NCBI GenBank assembly: GCA_965223855.1
Contig: CBDCXM010000008.1
Location: 256,001 to 320,000, forward strand
Length of the DNA stretch: 64,000 bases
Direction: 5' to 3'
Source of the DNA: Candidatus Multivoradales bacterium
GTDB taxonomy: Bacteria > Acidobacteriota > Thermoanaerobaculia > Multivoradales > JAHEKO01
Shown here in pieces: positions 15,197-39,426 of the stretch. Below the pieces are notes generated by a model. That model was given only the letters and a program-made list of their open reading frames with translations, was not told the DNA's origin and made no database searches. Made by a program: the position numbers and the translations under genes. Position 1 is the first letter of the stretch. Each line of letters begins with the position of its first letter.

Positions 15197-15225
15197 ATTG
15201 TACAGCGGTAGGTCTGTGCTGTAAA
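15197..15225 (-). promoter_or_regulatory. Sigma70-type promoter for tRNA-Thr(GGT)-tuf
   Basis: TTTACA-N17-TACAAT on the minus strand, 60 bp upstream of the tRNA. Confidence 0.7.
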
Positions 15226-17838: not shown

Positions 17839-17896
17839 GCAGCAACCCTCGCAGCCGCCCTGCGCAACCCGACGCCAACCTGGTCGGAGCGAGCCC

Positions 17897-20119: not shown

Positions 20120-20155
20120 CGCCCGACACCGCTTCGTGTCAGTCGACTGAGAACG

Positions 20156-20340
20156 CTAGCTAGTTCTTCTCACGCCGCTCCGGCCTGGTGGGTCGTAGGT
20201 TGCCGAAGATCCGAGGCCTACGGTCGCGAGCACCACAGGCGTAGCCGTAGCTACGTCGAGGAGCACAGCGACCGGAGAACGAAGTAGATTCAGTGACATA
20301 CGGCCTACCGAGGTGAGGCGGCGGGAGAAGGACGGGCTAG
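20156..20340. mobile_element. 185-bp MITE-like element, copy 1
   Basis: Reverse-complement match to 46503-46687; imperfect terminal inverted repeats of about 22 bp that begin and end in CTAG. Confidence 0.85.
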
Positions 20341-22920: not shown

Positions 22921-22969
22921 TGGCGTCGAAGGGGTGACTCCCTGGCTCAAGGCGACCCCGTGCCGCCGC

Positions 22970-23758: not shown

Positions 23759-23783
23759 TGAACGGCGTCCCTCCACCCGGCCG

Positions 23784-24596
23784 TCAGGGGCAGACGGCGC
23801 CGTCGTTGCACCAGTCGAGCACGGTCTGACAGTCCGAACCGCTACAGCCGGTTCCGGAAATGTCGAACTGGTTGTGCTCCAGGCCGCCGTGCGCACAGCC
23901 ATTCGTCGCGGGCTTGCAGACGATCTCGCTGACCATCATGTTGCACGAACCGGTGTCGAGACGGCTCAGGATGTTGTTGCAGGCCGCCGAGGGCGTGGTG
24001 TCGAGCAGCAGATTGCCCGACGGACTCCCACCGGTGTGGCAATCGATGCACTGATTCTCACCGGTCGGGAGCGGAGGCCGGCCTTCCGACCACAGTGGAT
24101 GCACGTCCAGGGTGTAGTCCGTTCCCATGGTCGTGGTCGTAGTGGTCGTGGTGGTGGTCGTCGTTGTGGTCGTCGTCGTGGTGGTCGTAGTGGTTGTGGT
24201 CGTGCTCGTCGTGCTCGTCGAAGACGTCGAGCTGGTGCTCGATGAGGTGGTCGACGAGGTGCTCGAGGTCGTGCCGGTGGTGGACGTCGTCGCTGTGGTC
24301 GACGTGGTCCCGGTCGTGGAAGTCGTCGCCGTCGTGGTGGTCGTCGTGGACGTGGTCGACGTAGTGCTCGTCGAGGTCGACGAAGTCGACGTGGAGGTCG
24401 AGGCCGTCGTCGTCGTGGTCGTGGTGGTCGTCGTCGTGGTGGTGGTCGTCGTCGTGGTCGTGCTGGTCACGTTCGGATCACCGGCCGGGGTCGGGTCCGT
24501 CGGCGATCGACGCTTGCTGTTGCAGCCCGGCCCCGCAAGGGCGACGACGAGGACGCACAAGACGAGCGTCCAGAGTGGGAGATGCGATCTTTCCAA
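23784..24596 (-). CDS. Lipoprotein with about 110-residue Thr/Ser stalk and C-terminal Cys-rich monoheme cytochrome c-like domain
   Basis: Hydrophobic stretch plus LAGPGC; poly-Thr; CIDCH; KP...HGG...W..DGA pattern of planctomycete-type cytochrome c domains; TTG start chosen downstream of an extended -10. Confidence 0.75.
   Translation of the reverse strand: MERSHLPLWTLVLCVLVVALAGPGCNSKRRSPTDPTPAGDPNVTSTTTTTTTTTTTTTTTTTTTASTSTSTSSTSTSTTSTTSTTTTTTATTSTTGTTSTTATTSTTGTTSSTSSTTSSSTSSTSSTSTTSTTTTTTTTTTTTTTTTTTTTTTTTTMGTDYTLDVHPLWSEGRPPLPTGENQCIDCHTGGSPSGNLLLDTTPSAACNNILSRLDTGSCNMMVSEIVCKPATNGCAHGGLEHNQFDISGTGCSGSDCQTVLDWCNDGAVCP
24129..24468 (-). repeat. Low-complexity Thr/Ser codon tract
   Basis: Mixed ACC/ACG/ACA/ACT and Ser codons, not a perfect microsatellite. 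Confidence 0.9.
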
Positions 24597-24637
24597 GAGT
24601 TCGATCTTTCGTTGACGGACTTCCGGGGCCTCGACTA

Positions 24638-24646
24638 TTGTAACAA
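24638..24646 (-). promoter_or_regulatory. Extended -10 element (TGtTACAAT) for the poly-Thr lipoprotein operon
   Basis: ATTGTAACA on the plus strand in the divergent intergenic region. Confidence 0.5.
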
Positions 24647-24730
24647 CCAAGCCGTTGCCAGCAACTATCCTGCACGTAGGCCCCGATCGCCGGAGCCTCG
24701 ACGAAGAATCGACATGAGTAGGGGGCTCCC

Positions 24731-26059
24731 GTGAGACGAACCATCCAAGTTGCCGTGATTCTGGGCCTGCTGGGCACGGCGGGCATCGCGCACGGCCAGC
24801 AGTCCGAGCTGGCCTTCGTCATCCAGAACCTGTTCGGCACCATCGAACTCGACAACGACTTTCACGAGGCCCACTTCTCGGGCGAACAGCAGCTCGAGCT
24901 GATCAACGACACCTTCGTCGCCGCCTTCGCACCGGCGCTGACAACGCTCCCGGTCGGTTCGCCCGGCGGCGGCTTCGCCTACAACTACGACCCGGACACC
25001 GGCGTCTTCACGCGGGCCAGTGAGTCCTTCGGCTCGCTCTTCTCGGAGCGTGCTCTGACGATCGGCCGCGGCAAGTGGAACATCGGTCTCTCGGCCCAGT
25101 CGGTCGAGTTCGACGACTACGGCTCGATCGAGCTGTCGCGGCGCGGCGTCAACTTCCAGCTCCTCCATCTCGACACCGGCGAGAACGGCCGGCTCAATCC
25201 GTTCTTCGAGGGCGATGTCATCTCGACTCAGATGCAGGTCGATCTCGCGACCGACTCGACGGTGCTGGTCGTGACCTACGGCGTCACCGACAAGTTCGAC
25301 GTCTCGTTCGCCGTGCCGCAGGTCGAGACGCAGCTCGACGTCGAAGCTCGCCTCGACATCCTGCGGCTCTCCAGTGACGAGCTCGGGTCGGCGATCCACG
25401 GCTTCAATCTCAACGACCCGAACCTTCAGGTACTCAACGAAGACTCGGCCATCGCACGCAGCTCCGCCAGCGCATCCGGAATCGGAGACGTCCTCGTGCG
25501 TGGCAAGTACCGCTTCCGCGACGCCCCCGGCGGCGGCATGGCCGCAGGAGTCGATCTGCGGCTGGCGACCGGCGACGAGCGCAAGCTCCTCGGCACCGGC
25601 GGCACCCAGGTCAAGATGTTCCTGATCGGCAGCCGCGAGTTCGGCAGGTTCGCCCCCTTGTTCAACCTCGGCTACACCTTCTCCGGCGTCGGCGGCCAGG
25701 TGCTCGACACCCTGCCGGACGAGATCAACTACTCGGTCGGTTTCGCGATCGCCGCCGGCCAGCGCTTCACCATCAACGGCGACCTCGTCGGCCGCCGCCT
25801 GCTCGACGCCCCCGGCCTTCGGCAGTCGAGCGACGACTTCTTCTTCGCCATGAGCAACGGCGGCGAGGTGTTCGACACCCGGCTGCCGACCGTCGATCGC
25901 ACCATCGACGACCAGGACATCTCCTTCGGCTCCATCGGCTTCCGCCTCAACCCGAAGGGCTCGCTGCTGATCTCCGCCAACGCGATCTTCTCGCTCTCCG
26001 ACGACGGCCTGATCGACCAGGACGTCATCCCGGTCTTCTCGATCGACTACAGCTTCTAG
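24731..26059 (+). CDS. Outer-membrane beta-barrel protein (MetA-pathway/'transporter'-like)
   Basis: Signal peptide (AHG-Q), amphipathic strands, SGIGDVLVRGKYRF, LATGD...LGTG, C-terminal Phe (IDYSF). Confidence 0.8.
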   Translation: MRRTIQVAVILGLLGTAGIAHGQQSELAFVIQNLFGTIELDNDFHEAHFSGEQQLELINDTFVAAFAPALTTLPVGSPGGGFAYNYDPDTGVFTRASESFGSLFSERALTIGRGKWNIGLSAQSVEFDDYGSIELSRRGVNFQLLHLDTGENGRLNPFFEGDVISTQMQVDLATDSTVLVVTYGVTDKFDVSFAVPQVETQLDVEARLDILRLSSDELGSAIHGFNLNDPNLQVLNEDSAIARSSASASGIGDVLVRGKYRFRDAPGGGMAAGVDLRLATGDERKLLGTGGTQVKMFLIGSREFGRFAPLFNLGYTFSGVGGQVLDTLPDEINYSVGFAIAAGQRFTINGDLVGRRLLDAPGLRQSSDDFFFAMSNGGEVFDTRLPTVDRTIDDQDISFGSIGFRLNPKGSLLISANAIFSLSDDGLIDQDVIPVFSIDYSF

Positions 26060-26083
26060 GAGGGCGTCAGCCCCGAAGAACCC

Positions 26084-26109
26084 AGGCGGCCCCGCGGGGC
26101 CGCCTTTTT
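26084..26109 (+). terminator. Rho-independent terminator
   Basis: AGGCGGCCC-loop-GGGCCGCC followed by TTTTT. Confidence 0.85.
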
Positions 26110-26159
26110 CCTGTAGCCGAGGCCGGGTGCCGCGAGAGCAGAACCGGCGACTAAGCCAG

Positions 26160-26391
26160 CGTCGAACCTCCGCCTCACGAGCGAAGCGAGTGAGCCACCG
26201 AGGGAATCGCTCCTGAGCACGCACCTGCGCGTGCGACGACCGATCCCCGTCTCCCGCTCCATGAGCGGCAGCGGCTCGTTGAACTCCGTCTCACGAGCGA
26301 AGCGAGTGAACCACCAAGGGAATCGCTCCTGAGCACGCGCCTGCGCGTGCGACGACCGATTCCCGTCTCTCGCTCCATGAGCGGCAGCGAA
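26160..26391. repeat. Two tandem 116-bp units, each containing an inverted copy of the tRNA-Gly 3' end
   Basis: TCACGAGCGAAGCGAGTGA at 26175 and 26291; tRNA-complementary segments at 26241-26262 and 26357-26378. Confidence 0.92.
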
Positions 26392-26466
26392 TGGAGCGGG
26401 AGACGGGAATCGAACCCGCGACCAACGGCTTGGAAGGCCGAGACTCTACCACTGAGTTACTCCCGC
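26392..26466 (-). tRNA. tRNA-Gly (TCC)
   Basis: GCGGGAGTAACTCAG...CTTCCAAG...GGTTCGATTCCC...CGCTCCA. Confidence 0.97.
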
Positions 26467-26582
26467 GATCGGCGACCGCCATGGTGGGCGGCGACCGCCG
26501 CCGAGCGGACTTTACCACCCCGCGAAGGAACCGAGCGGCGACCGCCCGGCAAGGACGGGGCCCTTGCTAGGTTAAGCCTCCG

Positions 26583-28235
26583 ATGCCTCGAAGCCTTACC
26601 AGCACGGCCGCCATCCTCGGCGCCCTCGCCCTGTCGACGAGCTTGTCGAACGCAACCGATGAGGCAGGCTCCTCGGTGTCGGACGACCTGCGCTGCCACG
26701 TCCTCGCGCCCCTCGTGGCCGGCGATGGCCTACCCGAAGTCGAAGCTTCGAAGCCCACCGCTGAACCGGGCCCCGAAGACCTGCTGCGCACCGTACGCAG
26801 CCGGCTCGTCGACTACGAGCTCGCCGAGGAAGCCAGGCGATCGGGCTTCGACGCGACGCCGGAGGTGGCCGAACTCCTTTCCCGTGTGAGAAGACGACAC
26901 CTCGTAGAATCAGCGGAAGCCTCCTTCGTCTCCGAGCGGACGATCGGCGACGACGAGATCCAGACCTACTTCGCCGCCCATCCGCAACGCTTCTCGATCG
27001 ACGAGCGCATCGCCACGCGCTTCCTGATGCTCAAGCTGCCGCCCGAGGCGTCGGCCGAGGCCGTCGACGCGACGCGGCGTCGTCTGGAGGACCTGAGGGA
27101 GAGAATCGTCGCCGGAGAGAGATTCACCGACCTCGCCCGGGAGCACAGCGAGGCCGAGAACGCACGGCGCGGCGGGGCGGTTCAGGCGAGCCCTCGCGGC
27201 ACCCTGCTCGAAGAGTACGAGGCGGCCGCCTGGGAGCTCCAGCCGGGTGAGGTGAGCGACATCGTCGAGCTTCCCGGAGGGCTGGCGTTGATCCTGCTCG
27301 ACGCTCGATTCCCGGCGCGCACCCTCGAGCTCGACGCGGCTCGGCCGCGGATCGAAGCGGAGCTGCGCGATCTGGAGCGGGAGCGACGCCGAAGCGAAGC
27401 GCTCGCGGAGGCCGAACGTCGCTGGCCCCTCCGACGGGACGACGAGGCGAAGACGGTCACCCTCGGAGAGCGCACGCTGACCTTCGAGGAGCTCGGCGTC
27501 GGCGGCCGGCCGCCGCGCTTCGAGGAACGGCTTCAGGCGGCGATCGACGAGCAGCGCCTCGCCCGCTGGGCGCTCGAGTCGGGGGTTGCGGACACGCCGG
27601 AGACCAAAGCACGCTGGAGCAGCGTCGCCGACCGCCTGCTGGCGGGCGAGCTCCTGCGCGCCTCCGCGCGACGCTCGGAGCTCGCTGCAGAGCCGGCCGA
27701 CGAGGCGCGGCTGCGGGCGATGTACGAGCGCCGCGGCGCGAGCCTCGCCGGTCCCGAGCTGCGGGAGTTCGAGGTCGCCTTCGTCGCGGCCGCGAGCGGT
27801 CGGCTGCGCCCCGCTCATGCCGAGGCGACGCGAATCGCCACCGCCTGGCGGGAAGGCTTCCCTCCTCCGCCAGAGACCCTCGAGCGCTGGGGTCCGCTGC
27901 CGAGGAAGCTCCTCGGCAACCGCGTCTCACCCGCCGTCGCCGCTGCCGCCTTCGGGCTGTCAGAGGGCGAAATCAGCCCCGTGCTCCGCATGGAGCGCTA
28001 CGTCCCCGAGCGGGCCCGCTTCGAGCCCGAGGGGTTCATCGTCCTGCGGCTCGTGGCGAAGACGAGTCCCCACCCCCCGACCTACGAGGAGGCGCGACCG
28101 GGGCTCGAGGACGAGCTGCTCGCCGGGCGGATCGACGACAGGGTGCGGCGGCTGCGCGACGAGCGCGGGGCCGCGATCGCGGTGGAAGCGATCCTCGCCG
28201 GTTGCGGGATCACCCTTCCGGCCGGGTTGCGGTAG
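26583..28235 (+). CDS. Secreted PpiC/parvulin-type peptidyl-prolyl isomerase (SurA/PrsA-like chaperone)
   Basis: Signal peptide; FTDLAREHSE...RRGG; AAWELQPGEVSDIV; degenerate second rotamase domain. Confidence 0.8.
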   Translation: MPRSLTSTAAILGALALSTSLSNATDEAGSSVSDDLRCHVLAPLVAGDGLPEVEASKPTAEPGPEDLLRTVRSRLVDYELAEEARRSGFDATPEVAELLSRVRRRHLVESAEASFVSERTIGDDEIQTYFAAHPQRFSIDERIATRFLMLKLPPEASAEAVDATRRRLEDLRERIVAGERFTDLAREHSEAENARRGGAVQASPRGTLLEEYEAAAWELQPGEVSDIVELPGGLALILLDARFPARTLELDAARPRIEAELRDLERERRRSEALAEAERRWPLRRDDEAKTVTLGERTLTFEELGVGGRPPRFEERLQAAIDEQRLARWALESGVADTPETKARWSSVADRLLAGELLRASARRSELAAEPADEARLRAMYERRGASLAGPELREFEVAFVAAASGRLRPAHAEATRIATAWREGFPPPPETLERWGPLPRKLLGNRVSPAVAAAAFGLSEGEISPVLRMERYVPERARFEPEGFIVLRLVAKTSPHPPTYEEARPGLEDELLAGRIDDRVRRLRDERGAAIAVEAILAGCGITLPAGLR

Positions 28236-30360
28236 ACGACGCCTCGAGCTCGGCGAGCAGACGCTTCGCCTCGGCGATCGCCGACTCCCGCCGCGCCTCG
28301 CCCGCCAGTCGGGTGAGCAGTTCCTTCGCCCTCGCCGTCTCGCCGAGTTCAATCCACGCGGAGGCGAGCCCGAGCGTGGCCGCCGGATACGGCTGCTGGT
28401 AGCGCAGGGCGCGCTCGAAAGCGTCGGCCGCCGGCGACGGCCTGCCGGAGCGCATCTCGAGCAGGCCGAGGTTGTAGTGCGCCCGAGCCGAGAAGGGGGC
28501 CACCTCGAGAGAACGCACGAGGGCCTCGCGAGCCTCGTCGAGTCGATCGAGACGGCCGAGAGCGATGCCGAGGCCGATCCAGCTGTCGCGGTGGCTCGGG
28601 TCGATCTCCAGCGTCCGGCGGTAGGCCTCGACGGCGGTCTCCTGGCGCCCCTCCCGGGACTCGAGATCGGCGGTGAGGAACGCCGCCGTCAGGTGAGAGG
28701 GGGCCACCTGCCGCGCCGCGGAGAGCAGGTCGCGTGCCGAGTCGGCCTCACCGCGGTCATACTCGAGCTGGGCGAGCGCCACGAGAGTCTCGGGATCTTC
28801 CGGATCCGCAGCCTGGGCCTGCCGGAAGAGCGAAAACGCGGCTTCGGAGCGGCCCAGCTTGCGCTCGAGATTGGCGAGGCTGCCGAGGAAGGTCGGGTTG
28901 GAGGGATCGAGCGGCACAAGGACGTTCGAGTAGATCTCGGCCGCCTCCCGCAGTTGCCCCCGGCCGGCGAGCGCGTTGGCGAGGTAGTAGTCAGCGAGGA
29001 AGGTGATCCCCTCGTTGGGGCTCCTGAGTCCGGTCGGTTCGCGGGGAGTGAGCTCGGCGTCGCTCGCCGAGCCGCCCGTCAGGTAGCCGAGCGCCTCGAG
29101 CCGGCGGCGCACGTCGTCGGACATCTCTCCCGCGGCCTCGGAGCTGTCGGTCGCCTCCTCCTCGACCCAGCGGAAGAGCAGCCCCTCCATCGCCGCGGCC
29201 CGTTCCGGCTCGCGATCGACGAGGTTGTACAGCTCGTCAGGATCCGACTGGAGGTCGTAGAGCTCCGGTCTCGGCGCGCGGATGTACTTCCAGCCGTCGG
29301 CCCGCACTCCGAAGAGCGACTCCCAGCCGAACGAGAATCTCGGCAGCGCGCACTCGAAGTAGGCGGGACGGCTGCCGAAGCGCCCGCTCGCGGCCTGGAG
29401 GAGGTCGCGTCCGCGAAGGTCGGACCCGCTGTCGAGGCCGCCGAGGGCGGCGAAGGTCGTGAAGATGTCGAGATGGGAGACCGGCTCCTCGATTCTCGCG
29501 GGCGCCGGTCTGCCGCCCGGTGGCTTCACCATCATCGGCACCCGCAGCGTCGCGTCGTAGGCGAGCACCCCGTGCGTGGCCTCGCCGTGCTGACCGAAGC
29601 CCTCGCCGTGATCGGCCGTCACGAGGATCGCGGTGCGCTCCCACTCGCCCCGCTCCCGGATTCGCTCGAAGAGCCGGGCGATCTGCGAGTCCATGAAGGC
29701 GATCTCACCGTCGTAGGGGCTCTGCGGAAAGCGTTGATCGAAGGGTCGCGGTGGGGCGTAGCGCTGGTGCGGATCGTAGTAGTGCACCCAGAGGAAGTAG
29801 GGCTCGCGGCGATCCCCGTCGAGCCACTCGAGCGCCCGATCGGTCGTCTGGTCGGCCGGACGGTCGGTCACCATCTGGTTGTAGATCCTCGCGTCCCGAA
29901 GCTTGCTCTCGCTCCACCGGTCGGTGAAGGCGTCGTCGTAGAGGTCGAATCCGCGATCGAGGCCGAATCGGGAGTCGAGAACGAAGCCGCTGACGAACGC
30001 CGCGGTCTCGAAGCCGCGCTCGCTCAGGAGAACCGGAAGCGTCTCCAGATCGTCCGGCACGACGAATCTGCCGTTGTCCCTCACCCCATGAGCGAGCGGC
30101 GCGAGACCCGAGAGCATCGAAGTGTGCGCCGGGAGCGTGACGGGCACCATCGAGAAGGCGTTGTCGAAGACGAGGCTCTCGGCGCCCAGAGCATCGAGGG
30201 TCGGCGACGTGCCTTCGGGGTAGCCGTAAAGACCGAGGCGATCCGCGCGGGTCGTGTCGAGCGTGACGAGGACGAGGTTGGGCGGCGCTTCCGAGCCGCA
30301 GCCGACGAGCGCAGAGACGCCCAGCGCAACGAGCGCCGCCCGGCGAGTGAGAGCGCTCAT
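28210..30360 (-). CDS. Sulfatase-like lipoprotein with C-terminal TPRs
   Basis: LVGC lipobox, NLVLVTLDTTRAD, PVTLPAH, HYYDPH, ADHGE, LEALGYL, several TPRs; ATG at 30360 overlaps the upstream stop. Confidence 0.88.
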   Translation of the reverse strand: MSALTRRAALVALGVSALVGCGSEAPPNLVLVTLDTTRADRLGLYGYPEGTSPTLDALGAESLVFDNAFSMVPVTLPAHTSMLSGLAPLAHGVRDNGRFVVPDDLETLPVLLSERGFETAAFVSGFVLDSRFGLDRGFDLYDDAFTDRWSESKLRDARIYNQMVTDRPADQTTDRALEWLDGDRREPYFLWVHYYDPHQRYAPPRPFDQRFPQSPYDGEIAFMDSQIARLFERIRERGEWERTAILVTADHGEGFGQHGEATHGVLAYDATLRVPMMVKPPGGRPAPARIEEPVSHLDIFTTFAALGGLDSGSDLRGRDLLQAASGRFGSRPAYFECALPRFSFGWESLFGVRADGWKYIRAPRPELYDLQSDPDELYNLVDREPERAAAMEGLLFRWVEEEATDSSEAAGEMSDDVRRRLEALGYLTGGSASDAELTPREPTGLRSPNEGITFLADYYLANALAGRGQLREAAEIYSNVLVPLDPSNPTFLGSLANLERKLGRSEAAFSLFRQAQAADPEDPETLVALAQLEYDRGEADSARDLLSAARQVAPSHLTAAFLTADLESREGRQETAVEAYRRTLEIDPSHRDSWIGLGIALGRLDRLDEAREALVRSLEVAPFSARAHYNLGLLEMRSGRPSPAADAFERALRYQQPYPAATLGLASAWIELGETARAKELLTRLAGEARRESAIAEAKRLLAELEASSTATRPEG

Positions 30361-32057
30361 CGCGCGTCGAGCTCGCGGACGTAGGAGTCGATGGCGCCGG
30401 TGTGAAGTTCGAACTCCTCCTCCTCCAGCAGCCGCGCAGCGACTTCCCGATCGAGGCGTCGCACCTCTTCCGCGGCCAGCGTCGAGATGACGTCGTCCCG
30501 CGCGTCGATCCAGGAGCGGGCCTGCGGCTCTGTCCGGCCGAAGAGCTTCACCAGGGCGTAGCGAGGGTGGGGCCCATCCTGGAAGAGCATCGGCTCGGAA
30601 ACCTCGTCGAGTTCCAGCCCGAGGGCGGCCGTCGTCGCTCGCGTGCCGACGAGCGTCCGGACCCTCGGCAGTGGAAGCATGCCGAGCCTGCCGCCGTCGT
30701 CGGCGCTGCGGTGGTCCGACAACGTCTGCGCCAGCGTCTCGAACGACTCGCCCGACAACAGGCGAGCACGGGCCTGTCTCGCCCGCTCGAGAGCGGCCCG
30801 GCGCCCAGGCCGGCCTTCGCCGTCGACGAGCAGCAGGCCGAGATCGAGTTCGAGCTCGGACCGGAAGCGGTCGCGATGCTCCTCGAAGTAGGCCTTCAGC
30901 TCCCCTTCGGGCCGGGTCTCGACCGACCGTCTCCGCTCCGCACGCCACTGCCGGTCGATGAGGAGGCGTTCGAGCGCTGCCTGCTGCAACTTCCCGAACG
31001 GCTCGGCCAGGGTCGGGTCGGCGTCGAGCGCCTCGCGGGTGAGGAGCACCGCCTCGCCGAACTGCCGCAGCAGCTCACCGGGCTGCGGCAGCCAGAGCAG
31101 CGGCTCGCCGTCCGGAGACAGCCCCTCGAGTTCCGGTGCCGTGAAGCTCTCCTCGCCGACGATGAGAGAGGGCCGACCGGCTGCGGTGGGGTCGAGAAGC
31201 GCCTCACGATCGACGAGGATGGGCGAGACCTCTGCCAGTCCGGCCAGCACCTCTCGGCCGCACTGCTCGAAGGCGGCGAGCCGAAGCGCCTGCTCGAGCT
31301 CCTGGCGTACCTCCTCGAGGGCCGGCCGCACGGTGGTGCCCGACGCCTCTCGCAGAAGCAGGTGCATTCCGTTGCCGGTCTCGACGACGCCGCTCACTTC
31401 TCCGTCGCCGAGCGCCCACGCCGCTTCGAGGACCGTCTCGTCCACCGGTGCGGACCTCGACAGACGCCCGATCAGTCCGCCCTCCTTCGCCGTTTCCGAC
31501 TCGGAATGAAGGCGAGCCAGCTCGAGGAAGCTCGCACCGGCTTCGATCTCCCGGTCGAGATCTTCGAGCCGCTCGCGAGCCGCGGCTCGCTCTTGCGGAT
31601 CGGCACCGGCGCGCCTGTAGATATGCCGCAGGAGGATCCACTCCTGTCGGGGCTCGGGATGGCGCTTGCGCCACGCCGCCTCGATCTGCTCCTCGGGCAC
31701 CTCGACGTCGCCGCACCTCCGCGCCATGTACCCTCTGCCGATCTCGCGACTGGCCCCGAAGCGGGTTCTCAGGCGATCCGCCGCGGTCACGCTCTGGGAC
31801 TGTTCCGCCCGGCGGCTGACGATCTCCTCCACCGCGAGCTCGCGCACCCGCTCGGAGACCCAGTCCGTCAGCGAGGAGGCCTCGGCAGCTTGACGCTCTG
31901 GGGCGCTCGCCGCACGCACGCCGGCGTCGAGAGCCTCGACGGTGATCCGGCCTCCCCGCCACGAAGCGAGGGCGCCGGTCTCGTCAGGCGGCTCGCAGCC
32001 GCTCGCCGCCACACCGACCAGCAGCACGACCGTCCGAACTGCGCTCCACCGTGTCAT
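30357..32057 (-). CDS. PpiC/parvulin-type peptidyl-prolyl isomerase lipoprotein with two rotamase domains
   Basis: AASGC lipobox; SFLELARLHSE..AKEGG; SFETLAQTLSD..ADDGG. Confidence 0.82.
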   Translation of the reverse strand: MTRWSAVRTVVLLVGVAASGCEPPDETGALASWRGGRITVEALDAGVRAASAPERQAAEASSLTDWVSERVRELAVEEIVSRRAEQSQSVTAADRLRTRFGASREIGRGYMARRCGDVEVPEEQIEAAWRKRHPEPRQEWILLRHIYRRAGADPQERAAARERLEDLDREIEAGASFLELARLHSESETAKEGGLIGRLSRSAPVDETVLEAAWALGDGEVSGVVETGNGMHLLLREASGTTVRPALEEVRQELEQALRLAAFEQCGREVLAGLAEVSPILVDREALLDPTAAGRPSLIVGEESFTAPELEGLSPDGEPLLWLPQPGELLRQFGEAVLLTREALDADPTLAEPFGKLQQAALERLLIDRQWRAERRRSVETRPEGELKAYFEEHRDRFRSELELDLGLLLVDGEGRPGRRAALERARQARARLLSGESFETLAQTLSDHRSADDGGRLGMLPLPRVRTLVGTRATTAALGLELDEVSEPMLFQDGPHPRYALVKLFGRTEPQARSWIDARDDVISTLAAEEVRRLDREVAARLLEEEEFELHTGAIDSYVRELDAR

Positions 32058-32162
32058 CCCTCGTTCCCCCGACGCAGCAAGGCCGCGATCCCCTTCTTCC
32101 GACCGAAAACCCGACGGAAGGGGCACCGCGGCCACGCAGTGCTGCGACGCTCGGCAGCGGCC

Positions 32163-32867
32163 TCAGTCGATCGAGACGCGCTCCAGCTCGACCGGCACGT
32201 TGCCGTCGACGACCAGCCGGACGAAGTAGTTGCCCGAGAAACCGAAGTTGCCGAGCGTGCCCGGGCCGAGGCTCAGCACCAGCGTGTTGTTCGAGGACTC
32301 GCCCGCGAACTCACGGTCGTTGTTCGGACCGTTGGTGTCGCGATCGATGAACCAGCTCGTCGTCCCCAACCCGCCGAGACCGACGAGCACGCTGCCGTTG
32401 GGGGTGTTGACGACGGGGCCGCCGCTGATCGACACCTGCTGAGTCACGCCGGTGCTCGCTCCGGCCGGCTCCTGCACCAACGGAGAGCCTCCGGTCGGGA
32501 ACCCGCTGGCAGTGAGTGGATGCCAGAAGTTGACGTTGGCCGCCGTGATTCCTGGCGCGCCGGACCGCACCCGGACGTAGGCTCCCCGCAGCACGAAGGG
32601 CACCAGCCCCGTCGTCGCGGCCGCACCGCCAAAACGCATCGCGAACTGTCCGTCGTAGTGGCCGCCCGTCGGGCCGAGGCCGTTCTCGAAGGAACCGTCG
32701 TCCCACATCAGAGTCGTCTGTCCCAACGTACCCGCCGGCGGCGGAGCAGGCCTCGCAGTACCGGCATCGGCAGGCTCGGCCAGATTCGGCTGCGCCTGAA
32801 CCCCGGCCGCCACCAGAAGCCCGACCAACCCGGCGATCAAGAAAACGCTTCGATTCCCTCTCGTCAT
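32163..32867 (-). CDS. Secreted beta-rich protein ending in VPVELERVSID
   Basis: Signal peptide (VQA-Q), Pro/Ala-rich segment, WDDG motif, good RBS (GGAGGAAAG) upstream. Confidence 0.75.
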   Translation of the reverse strand: MTRGNRSVFLIAGLVGLLVAAGVQAQPNLAEPADAGTARPAPPPAGTLGQTTLMWDDGSFENGLGPTGGHYDGQFAMRFGGAAATTGLVPFVLRGAYVRVRSGAPGITAANVNFWHPLTASGFPTGGSPLVQEPAGASTGVTQQVSISGGPVVNTPNGSVLVGLGGLGTTSWFIDRDTNGPNNDREFAGESSNNTLVLSLGPGTLGNFGFSGNYFVRLVVDGNVPVELERVSID

Positions 32868-33028
32868 GCCTGCTTTCCTCCCTGTGCTGGTGGATTCTGC
32901 ACCACCACCGCACCGCCTACCGGTGCAGCCAATCCTTGCACCCTAGCACGCCGGAATTGCGGTCTCTACCCCCATCGTCCTCGCGGACGGCGACGAGAAG
33001 CGGCTTCTTCGCCAGGGGGCGGACCCCC

Positions 33029-34147
33029 TCACTCCCCGGGCGAGAGACCGACCAGCCGCCTTCCGATCCGAGGACCGTCGGCGGCGGAGCCGGCGAACGC
33101 ATCCGCACCGATCCGCTCGCACAACTGCGGGCGCTGCTCCAGGCTTCGGCCGCCGAGCAGGATCCCGAGGCCGGGAGTCCGGGCCCGTATCCTCTCGACC
33201 AGATCGATGGTCTCACTCAGTTGCGTCGACAGCGACATCGAAAGTGCCAGCAGATCCGGCTCGAACGCAGCCAGGCCGAGCACCAGGTCGTCGCTCGACA
33301 TCGGCTCGGCGAGATGGACGGTGCGCCACCCATCCATCTCGAAGTGCGCAGCGACCATCCTCGTGCCGATGTCGTGAAAGTTGCCGGGCGCGAGGGCGAC
33401 GACGACGGACTTGCCGTTGGGCTCGTCTCCACCGGTGGAGAGCTCGGCCGCCCGCTGTCGGAGGAGGGTCAGGACGAAACGGGTGGTGTCGGTTACGAAG
33501 TGCTCCTGCGCCACTCCGACCTCGTGGGCATGCCACATCTCACCCACTCGCCGCTGGGCGACGCCCAACACCTCGAACCCCTCCACCACCGCCAGGCCAT
33601 CCTCGACCGCTCCCATCACCGCATCGACAGCCCGCTGATGGTCGCCTTCGAGAGCCGCCTCCAGGTAGCCGAGGGCGACCCTCTCCGTCTCACGATCCGC
33701 GGGCGCGACCGGCTGCGGAGCGACTGCCTCGGCATCGGGCGCCTCGGTATCGGACACCTCGGCATCGAGAGCCCCCAGGGCCTCGTCGATGCAGGTCAGC
33801 GGCAACTCGCCTGCGCTCTCCGGAAGCTCGTCGACAAGCACCTCCCGCAAGCACTCGAGGCTCGCCCGAAGATCCGACTGAGGAACCTCTCGCGCCCGAA
33901 ACGCCTCCGCCGACCAAGCCACCTCGGCGGCGAACATCTCCGGCTCCTCCGCGAGGAGTGCCGCAGCCAGCTCCTCGATCCGCTGCCCGAGGTGAGCCTG
34001 CCAATCGGCGAACGCACCCGCCCCGAAGCGCCCGGCCGTATCCGGATGCTTCTCCAGCAGAAGGCGGGCGGCCTCCGCCGCATACCCCCTCGCACTGGCC
34101 GTCAACACCCGTGCCGCAAACTCGGAAGAAGTCGTCACGTCACCCAA
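33029..34147 (-). CDS. Stand-alone cobalamin-binding protein (CarH-like B12 module with N-terminal helical domain)
   Basis: W-x9-EH (WHAHEVGVAQEH), xxHxxG (NFHDIG), Rossmann LSMS and LLGG elements. Confidence 0.85.
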   Translation of the reverse strand: MGDVTTSSEFAARVLTASARGYAAEAARLLLEKHPDTAGRFGAGAFADWQAHLGQRIEELAAALLAEEPEMFAAEVAWSAEAFRAREVPQSDLRASLECLREVLVDELPESAGELPLTCIDEALGALDAEVSDTEAPDAEAVAPQPVAPADRETERVALGYLEAALEGDHQRAVDAVMGAVEDGLAVVEGFEVLGVAQRRVGEMWHAHEVGVAQEHFVTDTTRFVLTLLRQRAAELSTGGDEPNGKSVVVALAPGNFHDIGTRMVAAHFEMDGWRTVHLAEPMSSDDLVLGLAAFEPDLLALSMSLSTQLSETIDLVERIRARTPGLGILLGGRSLEQRPQLCERIGADAFAGSAADGPRIGRRLVGLSPGE

Positions 34148-34559
34148 GAGTAGCGCTCTTCACGCTCCCCGCGTGTGCGCGGCCCGGACGAGAAGGCCGG
34201 AATCGACCTGAAGCCCGATCACTCTTCAACGTTCGCTCGACCTGCACGATCGGATGCCCAAAGCCGCCCAATCCGGCCGCTAGTGAGCTAAGTGATGCCG
34301 AAGAGCCCGGAGCGAGTCGCGACGAGTCGCCCAAGGGCCGCAGGACTGCTGGTGCGTTTTCCGAGTTCTCTGCTCGCACCGTTGGCGGGGAAGGGCTACT
34401 CATGGCGAAGGCAGATAGAACCGAACCCTCGACGTGCGCAAGCACATCGACAACTTGCTCCTACGGGAGAGACTGAGTTGAGCCCGGCGTCATAGGCGCC
34501 CCGAAGCGCCATCCAACTCCGGACGCGTCCGGCGCAACTACCTCCGACCGACCCGGATC

Positions 34560-37500
34560 CTAATCGAAGAGGGTCCTCTCCGCTGGCCTGCGAAGGGGAG
34601 CCTTGCGCAAGACGCCGGGCACGGGCGACAGGTCTTCTGCCACGAAGCAGTCCCCGTTCACAATGACCTCCATGAGCGCAGCCTGCTCCTCGTAGCCCTC
34701 GACGGTGGCCTCCAGAACCCAGAGCAACTCAAGCAACTCACTGGTGAACCGACTCGTCCATCGAATCGGACGAATGTCGTCAAGAGGCGAAGACCTCTTG
34801 CCGGCCCCCGTCTTCATCCGGTACTTCAACCAGGACTGGACTACCTTGAGGCCCGAGACCTCGAACTCGAATACCTCGCTCAAGACCGGCCCGAACTCTC
34901 CTTCACCAACTCGCAGGGTCTGTGATCCCGCGAGGTAGCGGAAAGTCTCCGGGTAGCCCTCCAAATCGTCGGGCACGGCCTTCGAGCACCTAGCTCTGCC
35001 ACGGGGAAGCCTGCCACGCTGTTCACCCTTGGGGACGAAGCGCTCCCCGAACGTGTGTAGCCAGATCAGTCGTGCCCCGACGGCACGCATCTTGTCGAAG
35101 AGTTCAACATCCTTGGTGATGGGTACTCGAACCTCGCGGCTCTCCATCTCCTTTGCGTAGAGGGCGGTGAAGGCGGGCTGGGCCATCAGCCCATAGACGT
35201 ACGCTGTCAAGTCCTCAGCGCCCATTGACCGACCAAAACACTCGGAGAGAACATCAAGCAGGCCGGGATGCACGTTCGCATCGCTCCGGTCGGGAGACCG
35301 AAACAGCGGCATAACCGCCTTGGCCCCGTAGGAGCCGCGGAAGTGATCAAGATCCGGTATGTGGGCTGTACAGGTAAGGCCTGGCCCCTTGGCTAGCGGT
35401 TGTGAGAAGAGACTCACGAAGTAGATCTGATGACCGACAACGGGTTCACGCTGGCCTACGTGGAAGTCCTTCGCGACGAGCGCAAGGAGTCTGCGGTGGA
35501 CTTCCACGAAGTAGATCTGGTGCGCACCATGAATGCGCCAAAGTGCAGGGCGAAGATAGTCACCTACCCTGCTGTCAGCCAGAATCCATTGACGGTCGAG
35601 CGTCCTATAGCCATAGGGAACCCTGTCTGGTGGCGGGCTCTCCCTCACAAGACCTGCAAGCGGTTCCTCCCGCTCGCTGGCGTTCGCGAGTGACGGGTAG
35701 CTGTGGTCGATCTTCCGGTCGCGAGTTTCCTTGAACGCAGTCGAACGATTCGGAGCATGCAACAGAGCTCGCCATCTCGCTTCGAGAGTCTCCGGGTCAG
35801 GCCCGATAGGCCAAGTGCGCTTAACCTGAGCACCCGAGTGCTGCCAAGGGAGTACGTCGGTCAACAACGGCCACGAGAAGTAGTCACCCATGCCTGATGG
35901 GCGGAACGGAGACTGCCAGTCGTCGGGACAGACCTCCCAATTGATCGAACCAACGCCAGCTAAGCTATCCAGCGTGGCGAGCTTCTCCTTCTTCGTACCG
36001 CGAATACGAGCGTAGTGCACCACGGCGGGATCGTTGGAATCGCCCGTCCTCTCGCGAACTGCGAGAGCGATGGCAACCGGGGTCTGGATAGAGAAGACGT
36101 TGTCACTCCTGCGTGTTCCTCTGCCTTCACCTCCAAGATCGAGTATCCAAATCTGATCGCATTGCCTTCGCAGGTGTTCGCGCATGCCGCAAAAAGCGTC
36201 ACCATCGATGTAGCTCGAGGCGCTGATGAAACTGACGACACCCGGACCAAGCGAACTCGTGTGCTCTAGCACCTTCCATAGTGCCCATCGCCAGAAGTAA
36301 ACGTAGAGGTTGTAGAGGTTCTTGGCGTGTACACCGTGGCCGGCATCGATGGCCGGATCCAAGAACGACCGAAGGATCGAATCCGAACCATCAGCGCTAT
36401 CCCCCCACCGGACCCATCCGCCTGTGCGCCCCTTGTTCGAGCTGGTTGCGGCCTCGTGACGGTCATACGGGGGATTGCCCAAGCAGACGATAACCGGCAC
36501 GTCGCTCTTGACCCTTAGGGCTTTCGCGTGCTGTTCAGCGATCGGTTTCAAGAAGAGCGGCAATTGCGGCGGCTTCGCGTGCGGGCTCTCAAGTGTGTCC
36601 GTCAAGTAGACGTGGGGCCCGTCGTCGGGAAGGGATCCGCCCCGATCCCGAAAGGCCCGGCTCACTCTGAGCTCGGCAACAGCGTAAGGACCTACCAAGA
36701 GCTCGAACCCGTAGAGGTTCCTAGCTAGCGCGGTCGCTTGCCCAGCGACGGCTCCTGCGCCCTCTTCCTTCTCAACACGGCGCAGCGCATGCTCTATTAC
36801 GCCCAGAAGATACGTCCCAGTGCCTACTGCCGGATCGAGCGTGACAACGCCAGACTCAGCAAAGCCAAGAGGCCTGCCCAGTCGATTGACCAGCAAGTCG
36901 TCAATTAGGCGAACTTGGCAGTGCACGATCTCTACCGGGGTGTAGTAGGCACCGACCTCCTTCCGCAGCTTCGGGTCGTAGTCGGCCAAGAAGTCCTCGT
37001 AGAAGTACAGCCAAGGATCCTGGGCTGCGACGAAGGTAGAAGCCGGTACCTCCGCGATCACACGCAGCAGGAGGTCAAGTGACGAAGCCATCTCGGCCCG
37101 AGCGCCAGGATCCGTCAAGACCTGTAGGGCTCGAGAAAGAAGGTTGTGCTGTGTTGCGAGTGCTGCCTGAGCGCTGTGCAGAGTTAGCGGGTCCGCGCCC
37201 TCACTTCGTCCAAGGAGCAGGGCGAACGCTACCGTCTGCGCGTAGGCGTCTGCGAATTGCCTGTCCGTGGCTTCTGGAAACAAGAGCTGGCGCCAGTCCT
37301 TGGCCAACTCGTTTATTGGGGAGCTCTGATCCTGAAGGGCATCGCCAACATCCTCCCGGAGCAAACGACACAAGGGCGCGAGAATAGCTGCGAAAGCCCC
37401 AAGGTCGATCTTGCCTTCCCTGTTGGTAGGCAGAATCGGCTTCCACGAGAGGAAATCGCGCAGCAGCTTCTCTAGGGTCTTGGCGGTTTCACCGTCAGCT

Positions 37501-37940
37501 GCGTCAGCGCCGGCGACGGCCACGTCGCCTGGCAGACGAGCAACTGTGCCTACGAGCGTTCCACTTCGATACAGGGCCCACTCATTTCCATCCGTGTAGA
37601 GAATGTTCGGGATGGCTGAGAAACGCTTGAACTGCCTCTTGTTGTGCCCCTTGAAGCGCCTCCCCAAAGCACCCACACCAGGAGCCTTGAGTTCCACGTA
37701 GCCTGCCAGCGTCTTTCCGACGTGCACCGCGTAGTCGGGTCGTCCCAGGCGCCCTGGTAGGGGAGTTTCTCCGGTACACACTACGCTCGACGCGAGCGCC
37801 TCGGCCGCGGCGTGCATGAAGTTCTCAAACGGACCGCGGAGCTGGTCCTCCGGCTCGCCGCTCGTGAGTTGGTTCGACTTGGCGGTGACAGCCGCCGCAA
37901 ACTCTCGTAGGGGCTCGAGGACTGAACTAACTTGGAACAT
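34560..37940 (-). CDS. Fused restriction endonuclease / N6-adenine methyltransferase / target recognition protein (type IIG, type ISP-like C-terminus, no helicase)
   Basis: PD...ELK nuclease motif, GAYYTP, DPAVGTG, NPPY, YGYRTLDRQW; visibly more AT-rich codons than its neighbours. Confidence 0.88.
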   Translation of the reverse strand: MFQVSSVLEPLREFAAAVTAKSNQLTSGEPEDQLRGPFENFMHAAAEALASSVVCTGETPLPGRLGRPDYAVHVGKTLAGYVELKAPGVGALGRRFKGHNKRQFKRFSAIPNILYTDGNEWALYRSGTLVGTVARLPGDVAVAGADAADGETAKTLEKLLRDFLSWKPILPTNREGKIDLGAFAAILAPLCRLLREDVGDALQDQSSPINELAKDWRQLLFPEATDRQFADAYAQTVAFALLLGRSEGADPLTLHSAQAALATQHNLLSRALQVLTDPGARAEMASSLDLLLRVIAEVPASTFVAAQDPWLYFYEDFLADYDPKLRKEVGAYYTPVEIVHCQVRLIDDLLVNRLGRPLGFAESGVVTLDPAVGTGTYLLGVIEHALRRVEKEEGAGAVAGQATALARNLYGFELLVGPYAVAELRVSRAFRDRGGSLPDDGPHVYLTDTLESPHAKPPQLPLFLKPIAEQHAKALRVKSDVPVIVCLGNPPYDRHEAATSSNKGRTGGWVRWGDSADGSDSILRSFLDPAIDAGHGVHAKNLYNLYVYFWRWALWKVLEHTSSLGPGVVSFISASSYIDGDAFCGMREHLRRQCDQIWILDLGGEGRGTRRSDNVFSIQTPVAIALAVRERTGDSNDPAVVHYARIRGTKKEKLATLDSLAGVGSINWEVCPDDWQSPFRPSGMGDYFSWPLLTDVLPWQHSGAQVKRTWPIGPDPETLEARWRALLHAPNRSTAFKETRDRKIDHSYPSLANASEREEPLAGLVRESPPPDRVPYGYRTLDRQWILADSRVGDYLRPALWRIHGAHQIYFVEVHRRLLALVAKDFHVGQREPVVGHQIYFVSLFSQPLAKGPGLTCTAHIPDLDHFRGSYGAKAVMPLFRSPDRSDANVHPGLLDVLSECFGRSMGAEDLTAYVYGLMAQPAFTALYAKEMESREVRVPITKDVELFDKMRAVGARLIWLHTFGERFVPKGEQRGRLPRGRARCSKAVPDDLEGYPETFRYLAGSQTLRVGEGEFGPVLSEVFEFEVSGLKVVQSWLKYRMKTGAGKRSSPLDDIRPIRWTSRFTSELLELLWVLEATVEGYEEQAALMEVIVNGDCFVAEDLSPVPGVLRKAPLRRPAERTLFD
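35415..35519 (+). other. 75-bp IS481-transposase-like insert bounded by a 15-bp direct repeat inside the RM gene
   Basis: CACGAAGTAGATCTG at 35415 and 35505; the insert reads MTDNG-FTLAYVEVLRDERKESAVDF on the plus strand. Confidence 0.7.
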
Positions 37941-38236
37941 CTGGAACCGATCGCAGGGCGACTTAGGCCCTAGACACGAGACCGCTCCGGCTCACTGACT
38001 GCAGAGCGCCCGCAACTGTCCACGTTCGAACCGCATAGTCCTGATCAGCCGCAAGTCTAGATCATCATGGCCAGAGAATTGCGTTGGCCCAGACTAGGCC
38101 CAAGCGAACCACAGAGTCGGGCTATTGTTGCACCAGACCGGAGAAGAGGCATCTGGCGATGCTATGCGTCGCGAGCGGTGCCGCCGCGGAATCACCTCGG
38201 AGGGGTCCGTCTCGGGAACCGACTCCGGGCACATTC

Positions 38237-38412
38237 CATCTCAGGCCCGAGGGCCTCTGGCACGCCCTACTAGTCCATCCACCTGCACCAACCACAAGCG
38301 AAGCGAACGATCGTGCCCGGATGGATTCGCTACGAGTCACCTGGGGCCGCAAGGCCCCTGGTGCGAACTCCGAATCCATCCGCCTGCACCAGCAGTGAGC
38401 AAAGCGAACGGA
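38237..38412. repeat. Two degenerate units of about 101 bp containing inverted and direct copies of the tRNA-Tyr 3' end
   Basis: CGAATCCATCCGCCTGCACCA at 38371-38391, degenerate copy at 38270-38290, direct remnant CGGATGGATTCG ending at 38329. Confidence 0.85.
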
Positions 38413-38498
38413 TGGTGGAGGCGGATGGATTCGAACCACCGTAGGCTTACGCCGGCAGATTTACAGTCTGCTGCCTTTGTCCACTCGGCCACACCTCC
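38413..38498 (-). tRNA. tRNA-Tyr (GTA)
   Basis: GGAGGTGTGGCCGAG...CTGTAAA, long variable arm, GGTTCGAATCC...CACCA. Confidence 0.97.
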
Positions 38499-38559
38499 GT
38501 ACCCGCTACTTCTCAACTGAACCTCGCCCCTCGCGGTGCGCCCAACTGCGTCGGAACTG

Positions 38560-38635
38560 TGGAGCCGGCACTCGGATTCGAACCGAGGACCTGCTGATTA
38601 CAAGTCAGCTGCTCTAGCCCCTGAGCTATGCCGGC
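38560..38635 (-). tRNA. tRNA-Thr (TGT)
   Basis: GCCGGCATAGCTCAG...CTTGTAAT...GGTTCGAATCC...GGCTCCA. Confidence 0.97.
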
Positions 38636-38657
38636 CTTCCCGGCGGAGCGGACGCGA

Positions 38658-38687
38658 AGTGTAGCCGAGGCGAGCCGGCGACTTCAA
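38658..38687 (-). promoter_or_regulatory. Putative sigma70 promoter for tRNA-Thr/Tyr
   Basis: TTGAAG-N18-TACACT. Confidence 0.5.
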
Positions 38688-38727
38688 CCGGGCCGTAGGG
38701 CCCCGACGCCGTGCTCGATCGCGGCAC

Positions 38728-39426
38728 TCAGTCGCGGCGCTGGCGAAGGCACTCGAAGAGCAGCGCCGAGGCCGCGGCAGCGACGTTGAGGGAGTCGACT
38801 CGCCCTTGCATCGGCAGGGCGACGAGGCGGTCGCATTCCCTGCGGGTACGGGCTCTGAGGCCCCTCTCTTCGCCGCCGAGGCACAGCATCACCTTGCCGG
38901 TCAGATCGACGTCCCACACCGGATCGCCCTCGGCGTCGGCGCCGTAGACCCAGAAGCCGTTCCGGCGATGCGCGTCGATGGCTGCGGCGCTGTTGGGCAC
39001 CCGATCGAGAGTCACCCACTCCGCTGCCCCTGCGGAGGTCTTGACGACCGTCGAGTTGACCGGGGCCGTGCCGCGATCCCGCACGATCACCCTGCCGACG
39101 CCCGCCCCTTCGCAGACCCGCAACAACGCGCCGAGATTGCGGGGGTCCTGGACGTCTTCGAGGAGCACGACGAGTTCGGAGTCGCCGCCGCCCGTGGCCG
39201 CGGCGGAGCCTGCGAGCTCCGCGGCAAAGCCGTTATGGACCCCGGAGACCCGCTTCGACAGCTCGGCCGCCGTGAGCCGCTCGACCAGGACGTTGCCCCG
39301 CTGGCACAGCCGCTCCACCTCCTCGACCCGGCGCCCGCCCTTCCTTTCCGCCAGCAGCACCCTGCGGATCTCATGCGGGCGATGGCGCAGCGCCTCGCGA
39401 ACCGGGTGGAAGCCGTAGACGATCAC
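38728..39426 (-). CDS. rlmB: 23S rRNA Gm2251 methyltransferase (SpoU/TrmH family)
   Basis: YGFHPVREAL, QDPRNLGALLR, GGEERGL, SLNVAAA. Confidence 0.9.
   Translation of the reverse strand: MIVYGFHPVREALRHRPHEIRRVLLAERKGGRRVEEVERLCQRGNVLVERLTAAELSKRVSGVHNGFAAELAGSAAATGGGDSELVVLLEDVQDPRNLGALLRVCEGAGVGRVIVRDRGTAPVNSTVVKTSAGAAEWVTLDRVPNSAAAIDAHRRNGFWVYGADAEGDPVWDVDLTGKVMLCLGGEERGLRARTRRECDRLVALPMQGRVDSLNVAAAASALLFECLRQRRD

Follow-up and report, generated by a model that had tools for sequence, protein, structure and literature searches.

Tandem fold-back units with antisense copies of the resident tRNA 3' end behind tRNA-Tyr and other tRNA genes of Acidobacteriota

The stretch analyzed here, hereafter the window, comprises 64,000 nt from a Candidatus Multivoradales bacterium of soil or sediment (Acidobacteriota; Thermoanaerobaculia) and corresponds to C8:256001-320000 of a 4.52-Mb assembly with 68% GC and 50 tRNA genes. 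It carries tRNA-Tyr(GTA), the sole Tyr gene in the ARAGORN tRNA set of the assembly, and directly behind it an array of two short units in which the tRNA's 3' end recurs in inverted and in direct form (Table 1). Read in the tRNA direction, the gene ends in ...CGAATCCATCCGCCTCCACCA, and the first unit begins 0 nt after the CCA with a loop that contains GAGCAAAGCGA. The antisense arm that follows spans T-loop position C56 to CCA of the tRNA, and its lone mismatch is a C:C at tRNA position 71. In the core behind it, a GC hairpin is enclosed by GGATTCG, from the antisense arm, and CGAATCC, from a short sense arm that reads CGAATCCATCCG in the tRNA direction and CGGATGGATTCG on the plus strand. The antisense arm of the second unit lies 101 nt from the first, and no sense arm is recognizable after the hairpin of that unit. 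The inverted 3' end with its 20 of 21 matching positions, its T-loop-to-CCA limits, the second unit and the hairpin had all been listed in an initial annotation made from the sequence alone, and each of these details was found in place; the same annotation saw no arms after tRNA-Thr(GGT), tRNA-Thr(TGT) or tRNA-Trp, and indeed none follow these genes. Contigs from two runs of the apparent source sample (covering 37900-38455 and 38023-38455) contain the array with zero differences, which shows that it is not an assembly artefact of the genome record.

Table 1. Positions of the tRNA-linked units and of the other features discussed. Coordinates are those of the window unless a contig (C8, C9) is given.
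Feature	Position	Strand	Remarks
tRNA-Tyr(GTA)	38413-38498	minus	ARAGORN; Rfam tRNA 58 bits; CCA encoded
Tyr sense arm 0, last 21 nt of tRNA-Tyr (C56 to A76)	38413-38433	minus	pairs with antisense arm 1
Tyr loop 1	38392-38412	minus	21 nt; TCCGTTCGCTTTGCTCACTGC in tRNA sense
Tyr antisense arm 1	38371-38391	minus	TGGTGCAGGCGGATGGATTCG; complementary to last 21 nt of tRNA-Tyr at 20/21
Tyr core 1	38330-38370	minus	41 nt; begins G-AGTTCGC, finishes CTCGTAG
GC hairpin in core 1	38343-38358	minus	GGGGCC-TTGC-GGCCCC
Short Tyr sense arm	38318-38329	minus	12 nt; tRNA C56-G67; AG directly before
Tyr loop/spacer 2	38291-38317	minus	27 nt; holds TCGCTTCGCT motif (AAGCGAAGCGA on plus strand)
Tyr antisense arm 2	38270-38290	minus	17/21 to tRNA-Tyr, 18/21 to arm 1
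Tyr unit-2 hairpin	38244-38255	minus	GGCCC-GA-GGGCC
tRNA-Gly(TCC)	26392-26466	minus	carrier of sister array
Gly array	26160-26391	minus	two 116-nt units; GC hairpin; 8-nt sense arm
Gly antisense arms	26357-26377 and 26241-26261	minus	1 mismatch each
Inserted DNA splitting the tRNA cluster	15137-26391 and 26467-38236
tRNA-Ser arrays (L003-L005)	C9:294282, 308573, 790053, 791259
M(S/G)RKLRYLP family, examples	C9:526261, C9:3053612, C9:93439, C8:737614

As a chance control, we took the 44 CCA-ended tRNA genes of the assembly and searched 700 nt on each side for the 21-nt antisense word with at most four mismatches. Downstream of the cognate tRNA there were 10 matches, at 6 of the 44 genes, and upstream there were none. 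Non-cognate downstream regions gave 9 matches in 1892 pairs, six of which are the Tyr arms seen from the adjacent tRNA-Thr or the near-identical arms of three tRNA-Gly genes. The arms that match their own tRNA are thus real and far beyond chance. One cognate match, behind tRNA-Leu(TAA), has four mismatches, lies 288 nt downstream in coding-looking DNA and is probably fortuitous. The genome has two identical tRNA-Leu(TAA) genes (C9:3055281 and C9:3057867), 2.6 kb apart, and the gene that follows is identical in kind at both; of the two copies, the first has several small deletions, consistent with a duplication of which one copy is decaying or with an assembly problem.

The Tyr array has sisters in the same genome. 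Repeats of the gene's own 3' end occur at 10 of the 50 tRNA genes, six of them of the type found at Tyr and Gly and four being arrays of another kind behind tRNA-Ser genes. The Gly array of the window has the layout of the Tyr array in a sequence of its own, and its first unit likewise begins 0 nt after the CCA. Antisense arms stand close behind the CCA at five tRNAs, Gly(TCC), Tyr, Glu(CTC), Glu(TTC) and Leu(CAA), with the first arm offset from it by 14-22 nt, and a sixth unit of this type follows a displaced 3' end of tRNA-Arg(CCG). There are two units at Tyr, two at Gly, four at Glu(TTC) (100 nt each), and one each at Glu(CTC), Leu(CAA) and Arg(CCG). Since tRNA-Tyr and tRNA-Gly(TCC) are single-copy genes, the arrays are compatible with tRNA function. 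In the arrays at the four tRNA-Ser genes, tandem units of 140-172 nt contain an antisense T arm internally and end in a direct copy of the last 21 nt of the tRNA; Ser(TGA) has three units at a spacing of exactly 172 nt.

Beyond this genome, we scanned 300 genomes of the order with a structural pattern in which only the T loop, CCA, TGG and GGANTYG are fixed, any base being allowed at the 11 free arm positions. The scan gave 48 matches in 39 genomes; two matches in two genomes were non-complementary, and their removal left 46 matches in 37 genomes from four families of Thermoanaerobaculia (Acidobacteriota). The reversed pattern matched nothing in these 300 genomes, nor in 401 genomes sampled across the phylum. 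With six loci in the genome at hand and 37 of 300 genomes in the order, the layout is a general one, as the initial annotation had proposed from the Tyr and Gly arrays.

The annotation had also supposed that each arm corresponds to its own tRNA and that the arms share end points, and both suppositions are borne out. In 26 distinct arm pairs, the two arms are complementary at 8 or more of the 11 free positions, up to all of them, and in an alignment of 20 loci 17 of the 24 predicted pairs have changed on both sides. The limits of the arms are the same in all cases: one is the CCA and the other the T-loop centre, between T55 and C56, and the sense arm that follows likewise begins at C56. Inner units keep full-length antisense arms and have truncated sense arms, and the units have no coding capacity.

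Between the arms, the cores share their ends. We compared 32 distinct first units with 12 different tRNA arms, of which 15 rows come from one tRNA-Gly in a single genus and are not independent. A G directly follows the antisense arm in all 32, TCG occupies core positions 5-7 in 21, and AG precedes the next sense arm in 20 of 26 (8 of 12 when each arm is counted once). One core type, GAG.TCGC...CTCGTAG, stands behind tRNA-Tyr here, behind tRNA-Tyr in the relative L017 and behind tRNA-Ala in L048, from another family; a second type, GTCGTCGC...CTC.G.AG, stands behind Gly, Ser, Gln and Glu. The loops take the form either of a hairpin of their own or of a CTCGCTTCGCTCG-like stretch. Because the arms match the resident tRNA and the core types cross tRNA identities, the arms are tRNA-specific and the loop and core belong to the family. 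The loop motif that the initial annotation had seen in both arrays is real in the order; it is short and GC-rich, however, and barely enriched genome-wide. The word GAGCGAAGCGAG, with five exact copies in the genome, two of them in the Gly array, where about one would be expected by our own arithmetic, was too short to be kept as a signature of the family. In organisms that co-occur with ours in the same sample or study, tRNA-Tyr is followed by loops of the GAGCGAAGCGA type or of the type found in L017, which places the Tyr element in several co-occurring relatives.

These shared cores bear on the possibility that there is no common element at all and that the units are local quasi-palindromes, formed by template switching at the T-loop palindrome TTCGAA and behind the CCA and then multiplied by tandem slippage. 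Such an origin would suit the arms, which end at the centre of that palindrome in every case, and the loops, many of which are themselves hairpins, the whole stretch being one long palindrome; it would also suit the finding that in this genome no locus shares its loop and core sequences with another (word search, at most one mismatch) and that no enzyme was found in the open reading frames (ORFs) tested. It leaves unexplained, however, why a core with conserved ends should lie between arms at 12 different tRNAs, why CTCGCTTCGCTCG-like loops recur at unrelated tRNAs and why the units are restricted to tRNA 3' ends, and we regard it as unlikely.

The distribution of the units among relatives is sporadic and recurrent. 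None of 26 tRNA-Tyr genes of relatives (one row, G005, being an unpublished genome) has an arm at up to four mismatches, and at loci anchored on the neighbouring SpoU gene, whose homologues assign the relatives to Acidobacteriota, class Thermoanaerobaculia, arms follow 0 of 43 tRNA-Tyr and 1 of 33 tRNA-Gly genes. As most relatives lack them, the units are dispensable for the tRNA. The relative L017 has a decayed Tyr unit with both arms, which ends in a sense arm that closes with CCA and differs from the tRNA at 3 of 21 positions. Two genomes of another family have, behind tRNA-Tyr, a unit whose loop is related to Tyr loop 1, as an insertion of about 250 nt between Tyr and Gly in an otherwise intact cluster. 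Of the 42 species of one genus, about 23 have the Gly element; unit number there goes from 0 to 3 or more, and the cores alternate between two types. Compared between genomes, unit number ranges from 0 to 8 from one species to another.

Arrays of this general design have a precedent in E. coli. In strain K-12, 22 tRNA-linked repeats (TLRs) stand directly behind tRNA (or rRNA) genes at ten loci, one to five per locus, and the closing 18-19 bp of each exactly repeat the upstream gene's 3' end; they have been known since 1978, and those in tRNA operons are described as having no known function or origin (PMC8144298, which cites Egan and Landy, 1978; Rudd, 1999; Bosl and Kersten, 1991/1994). We use the term sensu Rudd (1999) as summarized in PMC8144298. 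The suggestion that the arrays represent an undescribed system is accordingly not supported, since their layout is that of the E. coli TLRs. In the literature outside subscription journals we found only the E. coli work and the tRNA-linked short tandem repeats of Entamoeba, and no report from Acidobacteriota.

The resemblance is close in several respects. Read directly, the E. coli tyrT-tyrV region (178-bp repeats, RtT RNA, RF00391) has a GC-rich interior with GAGCGAAGCGA-like motifs and hairpins; its unit contains a 10-nt segment antisense to the 3' strand of the T stem and acceptor, 59 nt behind the CCA, and a sense 3' end, and in the Rfam model for RtT the outer stem is this antisense segment paired with the sense copy. 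The units described here share the tandem arrangement directly behind the tRNA on the same strand, an antisense segment, a structured GC-rich interior with GAGCGAAGCGA-like motifs and a sense copy that starts from the T loop. Many different tRNAs are affected in both cases. The unit numbers in this genome, one to four at each of its six loci of the present type, lie within the E. coli range of one to five, and the Tyr unit has an RtT-like outer stem of antisense and sense segments that encloses hairpins. The two designs differ in which arm is long. In E. coli it is the sense arm (18-19 nt with CCA), the antisense segment having 10 nt, whereas here the antisense arm has 21 nt including TGG and lies near the CCA, and the sense arm has 8-15 nt and no CCA in the units of the window. 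A full-length antisense arm 14-23 nt behind the CCA can pair with the tRNA itself.

At the four Ser loci the units do end, as in E. coli, in the 18-19 bp shared with the tRNA 3' end; the units of the window lack this defining TLR feature, their sense arms being shorter (12 nt at Tyr, 8 nt at Gly). The RtT model, which scores 133-137 bits on four E. coli units and has a criterion of 45 bits, matched nothing in 37900-38700 at E up to 10 and nothing at six other array loci at E up to 5. For these two reasons we treat the units of the window as a variant rather than as members of the TLRs. Searches with Rfam, at the gathering threshold and at E up to 10, returned only tRNAs and noise, and the units thus match no known RNA family. 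On sequence grounds, then, the Ser arrays have the layout of the E. coli TLRs, and the units of the window are a new variant of that design in which the antisense arm is full length and beside the tRNA and the sense arm is short. The notion that they are E. coli-type units turned around was dropped because L017 has both full arms in the tRNA orientation; the order of motif and hairpin is also at odds with a simple inversion.

The phylum scan adds further cases. Among the 401 genomes, 23 had a match, of which 17 read as real; the others were four convergent Met/Glu gene pairs and two non-complementary matches. The real ones include a family outside the window's class (loci L074-L081) with units behind tRNA-Ser, Phe, His and Gln. 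There a perfect bidirectional terminator lies between the tRNA 3' end and the antisense copy, and it is followed by the antisense arm into the T loop and a conserved structured interior of about 85-155 nt. At Phe, His and Gln an extended sense copy of the 3' end comes next, which in two of these reaches the CCA; in its place the Ser loci printed have only a short T-loop remnant. This arrangement is close to the E. coli layout.

The initial annotation held that decay increases with distance from the tRNA and took this to suggest that units are added at the proximal end. Among 16 arrays with at least two antisense arms, the proximal arm matches the tRNA better than the most distal arm does in 9; in 6 the two arms match equally well, and in 1 the distal arm is the better match. 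An array of eight units has, from the tRNA outward, 0, 2, 2, 2, 3, 3, 3 and 6 mismatches, and the Gly array of the window has 1 and 1, with no gradient. Polarity of decay thus holds as a tendency only. Proximal addition would produce it, but so, just as readily, would templated correction if this works better on the arm able to fold onto the selected tRNA.

Proximal addition is part of a wider idea, in which TLR-like units would be the products of a dedicated copying or recombination activity templated on the tRNA 3' end, forming one general system in E. coli and Acidobacteriota. In a copying version, a polymerase or reverse transcriptase would jump onto the CCA end of a mature tRNA and copy it as far as the T loop, much as a primer-binding site is regenerated. 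The primer-binding site of retroviruses and long terminal repeat retrotransposons begins with TGG, is complementary to about 18 nt at a tRNA's 3' terminus and ends in the T loop; in each cycle it is copied again from the tRNA, and it belongs to a mobile retroelement rather than lying behind the gene of its cognate tRNA. The antisense arm, too, begins with TGG, is complementary to the tRNA 3' end and ends in the T loop, a likeness that we take as an analogy only. In a recombinase version, the enzyme might act on a single strand that has folded, its arm-loop-arm hairpin imitating the 3' duplex of the tRNA gene, in the manner of the CTX phage attP or the integron attC, and a cluster of mismatches at tRNA positions 69-73 would form the central bubble. 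We consider a single general system of this kind improbable.

Candidate enzymes were sought on several scales. The absence of a visible enzyme noted at the outset extends to other loci: among 69 of the 100 ORFs listed in the flanks of 32 loci (shorter and overlapping ones being dropped), none has an integrase, transposase or reverse transcriptase domain. When arrays were set against candidate enzymes between genomes, as far as this was done for reverse transcriptase and Y1 transposase genes, each of the two was missing in 2 of 5 array-bearing genomes. Neither was therefore retained as an obligatory partner, in a test that is small and in which old arrays need no enzyme at present.

Two known kinds of mobile sequence had been named as what the units might turn out to be, and neither describes them. 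Repetitive extragenic palindromes (REPs) and their bacterial interspersed mosaic elements (BIMEs), which are linked to RAYT (Y1) transposases, resemble the units as GC-rich intergenic hairpins that are sometimes in tandem. They differ in being dispersed, multi-copy and near-identical, and were rejected because the loop, spacer and hairpin words of the arrays occur only at their own locus at up to one mismatch. The genome does contain a multi-copy family of ORFs of about 300 aa, at some 14 places, that start with M(S/G)RKLRYLP and match Y1_Tnp (IS200-like) weakly; its members have terminal repeats of their own and short tandem repeats at their ends, and these termini are unrelated to the arms. 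Four of 16 Y1_Tnp matches lie within 4 kb of a tRNA gene.

Integrative elements, for their part, also leave extra copies of a tRNA 3' end behind the gene, and serial events can build arrays with the newest copy nearest the tRNA. Theirs, however, are direct repeats only, with an integrase beside the tRNA and kilobases of cargo, whereas the present units have inverted arms, measure about 100 nt, contain no gene and have no integrase. The genome offers a genuine case for comparison at tRNA-Arg(CCG) (C9:528420-533741, L174), where a 5.2-kb island with a tyrosine integrase (440 aa) beside the tRNA is bounded by a 51-nt direct repeat that runs from the anticodon stem to the CCA. The 3' end displaced by this island is followed by a fold-back unit, so that the unit is older than the island and the two footprints are distinct.

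Even so, the window itself gives some reason to think of scars of ordinary integrase-borne islands at tRNA genes, that is, of attL/attR remnants. The cluster Thr(TGT)-Tyr-Gly(TCC)-Thr(GGT)-tufB-Trp-secE-nusG is split by about 12 kb exactly behind Tyr and by about 11 kb exactly behind Gly, whereas in relatives its four tRNAs are contiguous with a Tyr-Gly spacer of 1-60 nt, and a gene of restriction type stands directly downstream of the Tyr array. The Tyr 3' end, however, has no other direct copy in the genome at up to three mismatches, a Pfam search of 13 large ORFs in the 12-40 kb part of the window found no integrase, the Tyr element occurs as a short insertion without an island in the two genomes of another family, and the genuine Arg(CCG) island looks different and displaced an older unit. 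An origin as island scars was therefore rejected; it is largely refuted and, in our estimate, highly improbable. The breaks in the cluster may be a consequence or a forerunner of the arrays, or a mere coincidence.

The inserted DNA encodes a Ser/Thr kinase, a DUF2079 protein, a PTPS-related membrane protein, a SurA-like peptidyl-prolyl isomerase and a sulfatase-TPR protein. It also holds a 1126-aa ORF (34560-37940, minus strand) that combines an N6 DNA methylase domain with a C-terminal specificity domain of Type ISP; this restriction-modification-like defence gene shares the strand of the Tyr array and begins about 300 nt downstream of it. The bases directly upstream of tRNA-Gly weakly and unconvincingly resemble the Tyr 3' end. 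At 24128-24468 of the window lies a long imperfect GTC/GTG-rich tandem repeat with periods of 9-30, probably a low-complexity coding sequence.

A position directly behind the tRNA also invites a functional interpretation, according to which the units are cis-acting RNA devices: a factor-independent transcription stop or insulator, a guide for 3' processing, or an anti-tRNA regulator or sponge, with the sense arm as an 'anti-antisense' that frees the tRNA. In the predicted minimum free energy fold of the RNA, the 3' end of tRNA-Tyr pairs with antisense arm 1 (-125.6 kcal/mol, z = -3.2 against shuffles). No terminator-like site (GC hairpin and T run) was found in 37900-38800, which leaves the Thr-Tyr genes with no canonical terminator ahead of the same-strand gene downstream, and in the family outside the window's class a textbook bidirectional terminator occupies the loop. 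The Gly arm is near-perfect in the 23 or so species of the one genus that have it, where the loops vary yet remain hairpins, and the retention of full antisense arms in inner units with truncated sense arms points the same way. The E. coli TLRs, moreover, are transcribed, and three bind Hfq and CsrA (PMC8144298).

Several observations speak against such a function. The same tRNA genes work without arms in most relatives, as the counts for tRNA-Tyr given above illustrate. Mismatches in the arms are mostly pyrimidine:pyrimidine with hardly any G:U, and hence do not point to selection at the level of RNA pairing. A comparison of G:U with A:C intermediates in the Gly cores conserved in the one genus, which bears on the strand under selection, gave two cases one way and one the other and so favours neither. 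Correction at the DNA level would also keep palindromes perfect, so that compensatory changes are no proof of an RNA. RNA runs gave matches to tRNA words only, and the runs that hold the Tyr array are contigs, which are silent on RNA. On balance, a functional RNA device seems to us a possible but rather doubtful explanation.

The reading we put forward, tentatively and with a little less than an even chance of being right, is that the units are small non-coding insertion modules which share a common origin, form one family and colonize tRNA 3' ends. Each fold-back module, about 100 nt long, comprises a short loop, then the antisense copy (21 nt) of tRNA positions 56-76, a core with a GC hairpin and conserved ends, and a partial sense copy from C56. 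Such modules may spread among the 3' ends of different tRNA genes, where their arms would be derived from the resident tRNA or corrected against it, and arrays would gain and lose units locally through tandem duplication and deletion, with the unit next to the tRNA tending to remain the best match. If a module is transcribed with its tRNA, the antisense arm would pair with the 3' half of the tRNA in a 21-bp hairpin, and the likeliest side effect would be a strong structural stop or insulator behind the gene, which the predicted fold makes plausible.

Some of our results weigh against a family of insertion modules. Mobility is read solely from the distribution and the shared core ends, as no enzyme and no free form is known, and the locus-private loops and cores give no sign of recent transposition. 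The near-perfect Gly arms in about 23 of 42 species of one genus resemble constrained vertical inheritance and would fit a function. Of 36 mismatches at free positions, 29 cluster at tRNA positions 69-73, in rows that are related to one another, which is unlike neutral decay. Finally, this reading does not account for the way in which an antisense arm could be made anew for each new tRNA.

Whatever their origin, arms of this kind are easily mistaken for attachment (att) sites, tRNA pseudogenes or antisense RNAs, and annotation should take this into account. Several questions can be tested now, namely which gene families track the arrays, whether CCA is present in the arms where the gene lacks it, and whether the units are transcribed. 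The occurrence of the TLR design in a distant phylum, with a dozen different tRNA arms, turns what had been an oddity of E. coli into a tractable comparative problem.

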